DNA of 63,949 nucleotides, the filler included, from Thermoplasmatota archaeon (GTDB lineage Archaea > Thermoplasmatota > E2 > JACPAO01 > JAHFTW01): the NCBI GenBank assembly GCA_041623215.1. It is 3 parts of 3 records of this genome, joined end to end, with 100 filler letters (N's around TTAATTAATTAA, not from the genome) between each part and the next. Parts side by side here need not be neighbours in the genome. Positions count along the whole stretch, not along the records: positions 1 to 30,808 come from JBFJXH010000006.1; 2 more parts are not named here. One strand, written 5' to 3'. The position numbers and the translations under genes are program-made. The notes under the pieces were generated by a model. It was not told where the DNA came from. It saw only the letters and a program-made list of their open reading frames with translations, and ran no database searches. Positions 12,290 through 15,827 of the stretch are shown here, piece by piece; within the stretch, counting starts at the first letter, position 1, and the number at the start of each line of letters is the position of its first letter.

Positions 12290-12372
12290 TGGCTGGGCCC
12301 ACGGGCACGCCGGTTGCGCTACCACGAGAACCGGGCGTGGTCCTTTTATGAGGCCCCCCCGTCGGCGGCGAC

Positions 12373-13119
12373 GTGGACCTCCAGGCAGTGGGGCGACTGG
12401 CCAGAAGCGCCGCCCCTGCAACCTTGCTCCTTCTGTTGGCGACCGCCTTGTTGGCCCCGCAGGCTTTTGGCTTCAGCGGCGGCATCACCAAGGATACTGC
12501 CCCAGATGCCAATGCGTTTGCCGGCGAGGGGTGTACGGCGTGCCACGGCGACCACAATTTCGCTGTCGGCGGACTAGAATCGGTCGCCTGGACCATTACG
12601 GATGCTGACGGCAACGCCTTGGCGGGCAACGCCTACGAGCACGACGCCGAATACACCATCTCCATCGCCCTCAACGAGCAAAATGCTCCTGAAGCGGCCA
12701 ACCGGGCTGGCTTCAACCTACGCGCCTCCGCCGGCACCTTAGTCGGCGTGGACGGCAGCAGCCAAGCCACGGGCGACGGCGCCGAAGCAACGCACGTGAA
12801 CGCGGGCGCGGCCTCCTGGACAGTCATGTGGACAGCTCCAGCTGAAGGACCAGTCGTCTTCGACCTCTTCGTGAACGACGTAGATGGCAGTGGGGCGCCC
12901 GACGCCACAGACTGGGTTTACCGTGTTGGCTTCTGGCTGACCGACGACCACCACGCCGTTCCCGGCGCCGTGGAAGAACACGAGGTTCACTTCGGCATTA
13001 GCCTGCAGCAGTACTGGCTTGGCCTCATCGCCATCGCGGCGGCCGGCTTCGTCATGGTCTTCGGGTTCTTCTACCTCAAGTACGCCAGCCCGCACAACAC
13101 CGACTCCAAGGACCGCTAA
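12373..13119 (+). CDS. Secreted mono-heme CxxCH protein with Reeler/choice-of-anchor-V-like beta domain and C-terminal TM
   Basis: Signal peptide ending AFG, CTACH, TH and WTAP motifs, C-terminal hydrophobic helix. Confidence 0.8.
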   Translation: MDLQAVGRLARSAAPATLLLLLATALLAPQAFGFSGGITKDTAPDANAFAGEGCTACHGDHNFAVGGLESVAWTITDADGNALAGNAYEHDAEYTISIALNEQNAPEAANRAGFNLRASAGTLVGVDGSSQATGDGAEATHVNAGAASWTVMWTAPAEGPVVFDLFVNDVDGSGAPDATDWVYRVGFWLTDDHHAVPGAVEEHEVHFGISLQQYWLGLIAIAAAGFVMVFGFFYLKYASPHNTDSKDR

Positions 13120-13120
13120 G

Positions 13121-13492
13121 ATGAGCGGCTTGAGCGTCCCAACCAACAAGACGCCTGGCGAGGTTCTTCGCCACACGCCGGCGCCGCGCCCCGCCATCAT
13201 TGGCTTGTCCATTGTGATTCTGATGTTGGCGGAGATTGTCTTTGTGACCCTCGTTTTCTGGGCCATTAGTGATGGCGCCAACGACGCGACCGCCATCGAC
13301 CCAGAAATTCAGGCGGCGCCGATGGGCTTCATCTTCCTCAATGAGCAGTCCCTCATTGCCTTCTGGCTGGCCTGCACGTTCTTCTGCCTCAGTTTCATTA
13401 TTCTGCTGTACCAGCGCTACTTCACGGACCACGTGACCATCGCCAAGTACCGCTACCGTAAGTGGGAAGACGAAGGGGTGCAACTCAAATGA
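13121..13492 (+). CDS. 2-TM membrane protein in the cytochrome operon
   Basis: ATG 1 nt after the upstream stop; stop overlaps the Rieske start (ATGA). Confidence 0.75.
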   Translation: MSGLSVPTNKTPGEVLRHTPAPRPAIIGLSIVILMLAEIVFVTLVFWAISDGANDATAIDPEIQAAPMGFIFLNEQSLIAFWLACTFFCLSFIILLYQRYFTDHVTIAKYRYRKWEDEGVQLK

Positions 13493-14277
13493 GCGCGAAC
13501 CAGGCACGTGAACCACGCCCAAGCAATTACGCCCGCCGCGATGTGGCCGAGGCCCCGCCAAAGGAGAACCTCTTCTCCCGCCGTGGCTTCATCAAGAGTG
13601 CCATGGGCTTGGCGGTCGCCGGCGCCCTGATTCCCGGTGCGGTGACCCAGGTCCTTCCCGCCATGGCCCCCAGTGCCTTGGCCGCAGGCGGCGCAGGCCC
13701 CGTGGTCCTGCGTGACCCTGCCACCAACGCGAAGATTCCGGTCAGCATCTCAGACCTGGCGGGCAAGGCCCCCGTGGTCGTCATTGCAGAATGGAACTTC
13801 CTTCCGGCGGTCGTGTACAAGGTCAAGAAGGCGGTCTTGGAAGCAAGCACCGCCGCCCGTGGCTACAACACGGCCCAACATGCTCTGCCGCACCCGACCG
13901 AGCCCGAGCACGCCATTCTCGTCTACGAAGGCAAGTGCAAACACCTGGGTTGCACGGTAGGGTGGAACGAGGGGCTGCCATCCAGCAGTGACGTTGGCGA
14001 CTACGACGATGACGGCGCCAACGACGGCAGCGTGCTTTGCCCGTGCCACCAGGGCCAATACGACATCTACGATTTGGCCTTGAACAAGCCTGGAACGCCG
14101 CCCCCGGCGCCCCTCAACGTCATCCAGTTCACCATTGAAGCCGCCGAAGGCGACCTCGGCGTCAGCGTCTCGGACGCCATTGTTGGCACCGGCAAGCTGG
14201 AGCAAGGCGCCTACCGCGACGCCGACCTGGCGGGCGATGGCAGTGCGTTTGCCTTCTCCGAGGGGGCCGCCGCATGA
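13489..14277 (+). CDS. Rieske [2Fe-2S] subunit of a Rieske/cytochrome b complex
   Basis: Tat motif SRRGFIK, CKHLGC, CPCHQGQY, PPPAPL. Confidence 0.93.
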   Translation: MSANQAREPRPSNYARRDVAEAPPKENLFSRRGFIKSAMGLAVAGALIPGAVTQVLPAMAPSALAAGGAGPVVLRDPATNAKIPVSISDLAGKAPVVVIAEWNFLPAVVYKVKKAVLEASTAARGYNTAQHALPHPTEPEHAILVYEGKCKHLGCTVGWNEGLPSSSDVGDYDDDGANDGSVLCPCHQGQYDIYDLALNKPGTPPPAPLNVIQFTIEAAEGDLGVSVSDAIVGTGKLEQGAYRDADLAGDGSAFAFSEGAAA

Positions 14278-15089
14278 GTGACCATGACGCGGACGTCCGC
14301 GCCCACAAGCAGGGCAAGCGCGCCTATGAGGAGCTGGCCAAGGAGAAGCGCCTGGGCATGTTCGCCCGCGTTTACCTGATGCTGCTCGCCTACCTAGATG
14401 ACTCCATTCGGATTCGCAACCACATCGACGCCGCCAAGCGCGCGTCCTTGTCCATCCAGCGCCAACTTCCCCGTTCTCACACGGAGCGTTACAAGCTCAC
14501 CACCATCTGGTACTGGTACCCCTTGTATTGCTTGGGCGGCTTGGCCTTCGTCAGCTTCTTGATTCTGACGGTGAGCGGCGTGATTCTGGGCATCTATTAC
14601 ATTCCCCACTACGAGCCGCAAGAAGTCTTCGCAGCGCGTGATTCAGTCCAATTCATCATGGAGGACGTTACGCTTGGCTACATCCTGCGGGGCGTCCACC
14701 ACTGGGGGGCCCACATGATGACCGCATGCGTGTTCCTGCACATGATGCGTGTTTACTTCACGGGAGCCTACAAGAAGCCGCGCGAACTGAACTGGGTGCT
14801 TGGTGTCGCCCTCATCGGCATCACGTTCTTCTTCGCCTACAGCGGCTACTTGCTGCCCGCCGACCAATTGGCCATCGCAGCGGCCACCATTGGCATGAAC
14901 ATGTTTGGCAGCATTCCCGTGCTCGGGGAGCCCATTGCGGGCCTCATGTTCAGCGGCACGAGCGTCACGGCGGGCCTGATTCCCCGCATGTACCTCCTGC
15001 ATGTCTGGGTTTTGCCCTTCGCGCTGTTCGGACTGATGGTGCTGCACATGTTTATTGTGTGGCTGCAAGGGATGGCGGAACCCCACTGA
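14274..15089 (+). CDS. petB: Cytochrome b6-like subunit (N-terminal half of split cytochrome b)
   Basis: YCLGG, HHWGAHMMTACVFLH, GAYKKPRELNW, SGYLLP, HVWVLPFALFGLMVLH. Confidence 0.93.
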   Translation: MSDHDADVRAHKQGKRAYEELAKEKRLGMFARVYLMLLAYLDDSIRIRNHIDAAKRASLSIQRQLPRSHTERYKLTTIWYWYPLYCLGGLAFVSFLILTVSGVILGIYYIPHYEPQEVFAARDSVQFIMEDVTLGYILRGVHHWGAHMMTACVFLHMMRVYFTGAYKKPRELNWVLGVALIGITFFFAYSGYLLPADQLAIAAATIGMNMFGSIPVLGEPIAGLMFSGTSVTAGLIPRMYLLHVWVLPFALFGLMVLHMFIVWLQGMAEPH

Positions 15090-15104: not shown

Positions 15105-15827
15105 ATGCCAAGTATCTCTGAACTGACGCGCCTGTACACCGAATCCAAGGACCGCCTTGAGAAGGCCCGTGGCCCCCCGAAGAAGCAGAAGGCCGTGGAA
15201 GGCGTTCCACTGTCGCAGGAATTGGTCCGCGACGGCGCCATCGTGAGCTTCGTTATGGCTGTCATTTTCCTGATGATTGCCATCGCTCCGCCGCCGCTGC
15301 ATGACGGCTTCGACCTGACCACCCCGCCCCTGTTCGTCAAGCCGGATTGGTACTTGCTGTGGTCGTTGGGCCCCATCTTCCTGGCCAAGTGGCCGTTGCC
15401 CAACCCCGGTATTCCGTTCCTGCCGGACCCCTTGATTGACCAGGCCTTCATGGGCACCATCTTGGTGAACGTCGCCTTCGTAGTCCTGCTGGCGGTACCG
15501 TTCGTGGCCCGCGGAAAGTCGCGCCGCCCGATTGAGTCTCCCATGAACTTTGCCGCAGGCATTTGGGGCTTGATGTTCATCTGGTGGATGAGTATCGTTG
15601 GCATCGCCGACATCATCTTCGCGTTCGAAGTGCAACCCGCCTATGGGCGCCTCCACTCATGGTTCCAGGGCGGCATTTCGCCGGATCCGAGCGAACTCAT
15701 CAACGTGCTTGGCATCATTAGCTTACAGCAAACGTTCCTGTTCACGTTCCTGGCCTATTGGCTCATGGCTCGCCACCGACCGAAGTACGAGTCGAAGCTG
15801 AACGCCAACTACTACAAGGCACGGTGA
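15105..15827 (+). CDS. petD: Subunit IV-like protein (C-terminal half of split cytochrome b)
   Basis: TPPLFVKPDWY (PEWY variant), LAVPFV...RRP, several TMs. Confidence 0.88.
   Translation: MPSISELTRLYTESKDRLEKARGPPKKQKAVEGVPLSQELVRDGAIVSFVMAVIFLMIAIAPPPLHDGFDLTTPPLFVKPDWYLLWSLGPIFLAKWPLPNPGIPFLPDPLIDQAFMGTILVNVAFVVLLAVPFVARGKSRRPIESPMNFAAGIWGLMFIWWMSIVGIADIIFAFEVQPAYGRLHSWFQGGISPDPSELINVLGIISLQQTFLFTFLAYWLMARHRPKYESKLNANYYKAR

Follow-up and report, generated by a model that had tools for sequence, protein, structure and literature searches.

The first gene of a Rieske/cytochrome b operon in a Thermoplasmatota archaeon encodes a choice-of-anchor V membrane protein, Reeler-like and cytochrome-f-like, that, in our view, is likely to carry a haem c and with it to accept the electrons of a b6f-like complex, as cytochrome f does. 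The operon lies in a stretch of 63,949 nucleotides from assembly GCA_041623215.1, three parts joined end to end, which is referred to here as the window.

Gene order and conservation of the operon

The candidate gene (12373..13119, plus strand) has a GTG start and encodes 248 aa. On the same strand it opens a tightly packed run that continues with a small DUF7318 membrane protein (13121..13492), a Rieske [2Fe-2S] protein with a Tat-like signal and the motifs CKHLGC and CPCHQGQY (13489..14277), a short cytochrome b with a YCLGG haem-cn motif (petB, 14274..15089) and subunit IV with the invariant PDWY quinol-oxidation motif (petD, 15105..15827). The stop codon of the candidate is 1 base ahead of the DUF7318 gene, and the Rieske and petB genes overlap. 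Upstream, TTTTATGA at window positions 12344-12351, about 25 bases from the GTG, resembles by eye an archaeal TATA box with a leaderless transcript; a bacterial promoter scan gave nothing useful.

Linkage to Rieske and petB genes, which the sequence-only reading had proposed, is conserved among relatives. The order candidate, DUF7318, Rieske, petB recurs in 17 of 19 related loci, 16 of which also reach petD; at the remaining two the contig runs out, within DUF7318 in one case and just past the candidate gene in the other. The ABC genes upstream of the window operon were present at none of these 19 loci. The CxGG haem-cn motif of the window petB was found in 41 of 57 aligned petB sequences, and its Cys is lost in the other 16 (e.g., YTLGS). 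Two families (L061-L068, L097, L098) carry petD within open frames of roughly 930-970 codons, far longer than subunit IV.

The candidate protein and its conserved N-terminus

The open reading frame has the layout described from the sequence at the outset, with a signal peptide, CTACH, a beta-rich domain and one C-terminal transmembrane segment, the last appearing in the AlphaFold model as a single long helix at mature residues 178-205. The signal peptide (12373..12471) is predicted to be cut after A-F-G, and codon 12472, Phe34 of the precursor, is numbered here as mature residue 1 (Phe1). According to the model, the mature soluble domain (residues 1-161; 12472..12954) consists of an N-terminal arm bearing the haem motif and then a beta-sandwich. 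CTACH (C21, C24 and H25; 12532..12546) is the predicted haem-c attachment site, and His108 of ATHV (12793..12795) is a rival distal ligand or haem-pocket residue. The C-terminal anchor (12994..13116) comprises GISLQQYWLG, a transmembrane helix and a tail.

The NCBIfam model for choice-of-anchor V proteins, NF041895, matches residues 24-179 of the candidate with 64 bits against a curated cut-off of 42, and the family features G4, C-xn-C-H, T-H, W-x3-W-x-A-P and N-x-V-(D/N)-G are all present; the description of this model names no function. A Pfam scan of the candidate returned no match, either to Reeler (PF02014) or to the apocytochrome f N-terminal family (PF16639). Judged by these searches, the candidate is a member of choice-of-anchor V and not of the cytochrome f family. 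Weak Pfam matches to Reeler do occur in 20 of 112 relatives and in 26 of 49 members and, together with the NF041895 score and the Foldseek result given below, they bear out the suggestion that the rest of the protein is Reeler/choice-of-anchor-V-like.

A homologue search yielded 113 proteins, and leaving out one identical record and one N-terminal fragment we aligned 112 rows, namely the mature protein of the window and 111 homologues. Those with names come from Thermoplasmatota metagenome assemblies, with 3 of 19 record titles labelled otherwise. G4, C21, C24, H25, H108, W116, W120, N135 and D147 are invariant, with CxxCH in 106 rows and Cx4CH in the remaining 6; since C21, C24 and H25 never vary, the haem motif is not a chance occurrence. 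Counted from the invariant Gly4, position -1 is G, A or S and position -3 is G, A, V, S or T in all 111 homologues, a pattern that likely fixes the cleavage site after AFG. The N-terminus falls 3 residues ahead of Gly4 whatever residue 1 is, and that residue is F in 77 sequences, L in 25, V in 3, I, Y and H in 2 each and A in 1. An aromatic first residue, as had been supposed from the window protein, is therefore not a conserved trait (Phe or Tyr in 79 of 112, Leu in 25, others in 8). The motif does stand at Cys21/Cys24/His25 in the window protein, as first read, but this spacing is not conserved, because the first Cys lies anywhere from 18 to 29 (mode 20) and at 21 in only 24 of the 112. What stays constant across these sequences is where the N-terminus lies with respect to Gly4, and the numerical match to cytochrome f is in part a matter of luck; we dropped the exact 21/24/25 coincidence as evidence of kinship.

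Cysteine spacing is looser farther afield. Among 139 distant V-domain representatives, 93 have CxCH, 23 CxxCH and 11 a wider spacing (4-6), and the two-Cys motif is missing in 12, some of which are fragments. Most orthologues in the phylum, like most of the archaeal V members found, carry CxCH, whereas the window subfamily combines CxxCH with the respiratory anchor. Because CxxCH is canonical, this subfamily, unlike the CxCH forms, could be tested in a standard Ccm expression system. Single-Cys V-domain proteins (A-x-C-H; L060, P0128, P0132, P0179, P0183) recall single-thioether haem attachment. In a quick tree that included one off-frame row, the window subfamily formed one group, and a single origin of the operon V proteins was not discernible.

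The first-gene slot across the phylum

From 134 petB-positive genomes in a sample of 301 genomes of the phylum, we chose 40 petB loci with strong matches, spread over families. The first slot is filled by a V-domain protein in 20 of these, all outside the window's family (19 with CxCH, 1 with a single Cys), and by a cupredoxin in 8 (7 by Pfam, 1 by motif), and both kinds of protein end in the same C-terminal anchor, G-x5-(Y/H)W-x-G. Cupredoxins are fused to petB in 4 further loci; in this one family (L072-L074, L095) the N-terminal fusion comprises one or two cupredoxins. Another 4 loci have long N-terminal petB fusions, with Ig-like repeats in the 3 scanned by Pfam, and in one of them (L076) a Cys-x-CH stretch was seen by eye and was not recognised by NCBIfam; petD in this family (L075-L077, L094) has a Cys-rich, iron-sulfur-like extension as well. 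The other loci comprise one where a CxxCH V gene comes shortly after petD, one that is truncated and two left unclassified.

As far as these sequences go, a type 1 copper domain and a V domain exchange on one anchor, and because of this swap the slot is best read as that of a redox acceptor; it is the strongest evidence we have for such a role. The sequence-only reading had cast the candidate as the electron acceptor of the complex, and the cupredoxin swap supports that placement. In all 4 loci checked, moreover, cytochrome c oxidase subunit I carries an N-terminally fused V domain, which suggests that the V domain also serves as an electron entry to the oxidase. These fusions carry CxCH and come from four genomes (L219:285-2441, L220:1119-3401, L221:5167-7491, L223:3669-5936).

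The V domain is multi-copy and common outside respiratory operons, and many surface proteins with no part in respiration carry it. The window's family has, at 19 loci (L229-L252), a second V paralogue that shows CxxCH and adds a further C-terminal domain; none was detected in the window's own genome, which is 88% complete.

Probable haem attachment and candidate distal ligands

In the window genome an ABC ATPase gene (ccmA), ccmB and ccmC are consecutive, with ccmF on another contig. The gene after ccmC ends in CSSKF, a C-terminal motif that resembles that of the cysteine-type CcmE; a Pfam search for CcmE in this genome gave no match. System I (Ccm) is described in PMC4429474 as the only cytochrome c maturation system reported in archaea. 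All 103 genomes with a V match at E 1e-12 or better have the Ccm family, against 49 of the other 198, a contrast inflated by kinship; at the looser limit of E 1e-3 the figure is 120 of 129. Lineages with CxCH and lineages with a cupredoxin in the slot carry Ccm too, and we rejected the idea that it marks CxxCH lineages only. Class I cytochrome c (PF00034, PF13442) was absent from the five genomes tested, the window genome among them. With predicted export, a conserved CxxCH and Ccm genes in the genome (CcmE by motif alone), the candidate has what is expected of a c-type cytochrome and likely carries one covalent haem c. Another protein of this genome (L027:2840-4357, G000:C52), encoded beside a multicopper oxidase, combines a ferric-reductase-like membrane domain with CYSCH close to the N-terminus, and may be a second Ccm substrate.

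In cytochrome f the alpha-amine of residue 1 is the sixth haem ligand. PMC7908018 speaks in this connection of an iron-coordinating Tyr. We lean slightly towards the alpha-amine of residue 1 as the sixth ligand of the candidate as well, and the constant distance between N-terminus and Gly4 would suit a backbone amine. Among 63 natural sequences of cytochrome f, 17 likewise have Phe as residue 1. His108 is a serious but less probable choice for the ligand; it is kept in 135 of the 139 distant representatives (Gln in 4), which in these alignments is above what would be expected of a non-ligand. The second CxxCH paralogue of the window's family has Tyr at this position in 19 of 19 loci, judged by eye. 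Across the 112 rows, no Met of the soluble domain is conserved.

The same conservation could be taken to describe a metal (probably copper) redox site, with His25, His108 and the N-terminal amine as ligands and the cysteines forming a disulfide or one of them ligating; such a protein would still be an acceptor, functionally like the cupredoxin whose place it takes. Cys spacing that ranges from 1 to 6, or shrinks to a single Cys, while His25 and His108 stay nearly fixed would fit this, as would a copper protein as the alternative occupant of the slot. Yet we regard it as unlikely, given the canonical CxxCH of the close relatives, the strict co-occurrence with Ccm where no class I cytochrome c is available to account for it, an N-terminal arm that aligns with the arm of cytochrome f, and the CxxCH paralogue that does without His108.

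The haloarchaeal parallel and the rest of the respiratory chain

A parallel arrangement is known in haloarchaea, where split-cytochrome-b clusters include a halocyanin, proposed as the acceptor (PMC3509893). Like the window operon, the halocyanin-Rieske/cytochrome b cluster combines a split cytochrome b, a Rieske protein and a p-side redox protein, and the DUF7318 family is common to the window operon and Haloferax volcanii. The acceptor slot differs, holding a V domain in the window and halocyanin in the haloarchaeal cluster as described in PMC3509893, and so does petB, which keeps CxGG in the window whereas the haloarchaeal subfamily N is described as being without it (PMC5600118). The window Rieske motif CPCHQGQY is without the Ser of high-potential forms, and for this reason the potential of the acceptor may lie below the +370 mV of cytochrome f (compare the accounts in PMC3509893 and PMC7908018).

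The window genome also encodes oxidase subunits I-III with a CuA-like motif, and it has 7 cupredoxin matches. Subunit II (L028:6178-7674, G000:C51) has an extra C-terminal cupredoxin, its CuA-like motif CKEHCFNPGHAYM has one extra residue, and its gene points away from those for subunits I and III.

With so many cupredoxins at hand, and V domains on so many surface proteins outside respiration, the candidate might be a haem-c subunit that stores haem, senses or relays electrons elsewhere while a cupredoxin takes the Rieske electrons directly. We find this improbable, as V domain and cupredoxin substitute one for one on a common anchor in the first slot of the operon, and the V domain is fused to oxidase subunit I elsewhere.

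Predicted fold and possible relationship to cytochrome f

The AlphaFold2 model, haem-free and built from the 112-row alignment (pLDDT 93.5), is a beta-sandwich plus the helix at 178-205. In Foldseek the top match is the F-spondin Reeler domain (E 2.9e-6); cytochrome f is absent among the matches listed, yet lies within the top 1000. In a wide structural search of 48,161 chains the two best matches were cytochrome f (Z 9.8 and 9.3; model 1-161 on chain 1-248/250, with 136-137 residues aligned at rmsd 3.1-3.2), followed by Reeler (Z 8.3) and by unrelated sandwiches at Z 8.1 or lower. In a second comparison the top 13 entries were 3 Reeler (Z 11.4, 10.9 and 10.2) and 10 cytochrome f (10.2-9.0), with the first unrelated entry at Z 8.4; the best Reeler match aligns 121 residues at rmsd 2.9, and a full-length b6f chain aligns 1-213 on 1-292 at rmsd 12.3. 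Among the Reeler and cytochrome f matches, only cytochrome f aligns from residue 1, Reeler starting at model residue 7-14. A control model of a short, non-operon CxCH V domain (pLDDT 95.8) has cytochrome f as its best match, too (Z 10.2; alignment from residue 1 over 132 of 141 residues), with Reeler (10.0) and cohesin (9.6, from residue 23 only) within 1 Z. Because this unlinked domain ranks as it does, the modelled resemblance to cytochrome f, N-terminal arm included, is family-wide. The margins separating cytochrome f, Reeler and unrelated folds are small, and both models are haem-free predictions.

The likeness to cytochrome f proposed from the sequence is supported by the predicted fold, which matches cytochrome f from residue 1 onwards. 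The model has the Reelin-N fold and also that of the large domain of cytochrome f with its N-terminal haem arm, with Reeler scoring equal or higher. In the ESM Atlas, bacterial clusters contain Reeler in 13% of members.

At the level of sequence no kinship with cytochrome f was detected. From 120 metagenome loci we obtained 63 complete sequences of cytochrome f, with one locus left out and the rest partial. Their profile is shallow, with Neff about 2.2, and hhalign against it gave a probability below 4% over the CxxCH stretch only, and 0.2% once the motif was removed. In a collinear block test against cytochrome f, 72 and 87 of 300 shuffles did as well or better, and the resemblances noted by eye, W-T-A-P/I-L-S-P and V-N-D-V-D-G/G-G-N-R-G, were discarded as no better than shuffles. 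Searches of PDB sequences found nothing relevant with the single sequence and only CxxCH-local matches with the profile, and the cytochrome f motif had no match in viral contigs. The case for homology to cytochrome f is therefore confined to fold, topology and role.

On those counts the likeness is considerable. Cytochrome f (PetA) shares with the candidate a cleaved N-terminus, predicted in the candidate, CxxCH near residue 21-25, a single C-terminal helix and a beta-sandwich aligned from residue 1 over about 136 residues at rmsd of about 3.1-3.2, and cytochrome b6f has, like the window operon, a split cytochrome b with the CxGG motif as partner. Against this stand an identity of 7-12% with no profile match, an invariant His108, a variable distance from N-terminus to Cys and a non-photosynthetic archaeal host. 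The soluble part is also shorter, 161 residues against about 250 in cytochrome f, and with about 136 aligned over chain 1-249 the small domain of cytochrome f seems to be absent from the model. Cytochrome c1, to which cytochrome f is described as structurally unrelated (PMC5600118), and class I cytochrome c are alpha-helical with His/Met ligation, and the candidate differs from both in its beta-sandwich and in having no conserved soluble-domain Met.

Reeler (Reelin-N, PF02014/F-spondin) is the closest fold by Foldseek and by the Z of 11.4, and the titles of the solved F-spondin entries do not call them haem proteins. A Reeler-type domain free of cofactor and serving adhesion or assembly, with CxxC as a disulfide and a structural role in the operon, would explain why F-spondin tops two of the searches and why relatives match Reeler weakly, and we give it very little credence, considering the invariant C-x-x-C-H and His108, the replacement by a type 1 copper domain elsewhere and the want of any other c1/f-like gene in the operon.

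Proposed mechanism and significance

If the candidate is the haem-c acceptor, export and cleavage after AFG would expose Phe1, as the pattern in homologues implies, and System I, the genes for which are present, would attach haem at C21/C24 with His25 as the proximal ligand. The sixth ligand would most likely be the alpha-amine of residue 1, with His108 as the alternative, and the conserved anchor would dock the protein on PetB/PetD/DUF7318. Quinol would be oxidised at the PDWY site, with one electron passing from the Rieske protein to the haem and from there probably to a blue-copper protein of the genome and on to the CuA-type oxidase. We regard common ancestry with cytochrome f as somewhat likelier than convergence. 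A broader proposal, to which we give a little less than an even chance, is that V domains make up a large family of c-type cytochromes, so far unrecognised, whose sixth ligand is the free N-terminal amine, and that they share an ancestor with cytochrome f and with animal Reeler.

Cytochrome f is usually regarded as restricted to oxygenic photosynthesis. In the open full-text literature we found nothing on 'choice-of-anchor V' or describing the candidate, and 'cytochrome f' and 'reeler' occurred together only off-topic. Marine Group II archaea are reported to have cytochrome b and Rieske proteins and to lack a canonical bc1 complex (PMC6336850); if the proposed role is right, the V protein would supply the subunit reported missing from their Rieske/cytochrome b complex in that account. 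The archaeal V proteins would be the first likely relatives of cytochrome f outside photosynthesis, and the role would be the first function for the choice-of-anchor V family and a lead for Reeler domains. With a probable haem protein of cytochrome-f-like fold and layout leading an archaeal split-cytochrome-b operon, the question of where cytochrome f came from can be put to the test. Should the shared-ancestor proposal be true, cytochrome f would be a V member enlarged by a small domain, Reeler domains would have a haem-binding electron carrier as their ancestor, and Thermoplasmatota would run a b6f-like complex with a V member of their own.
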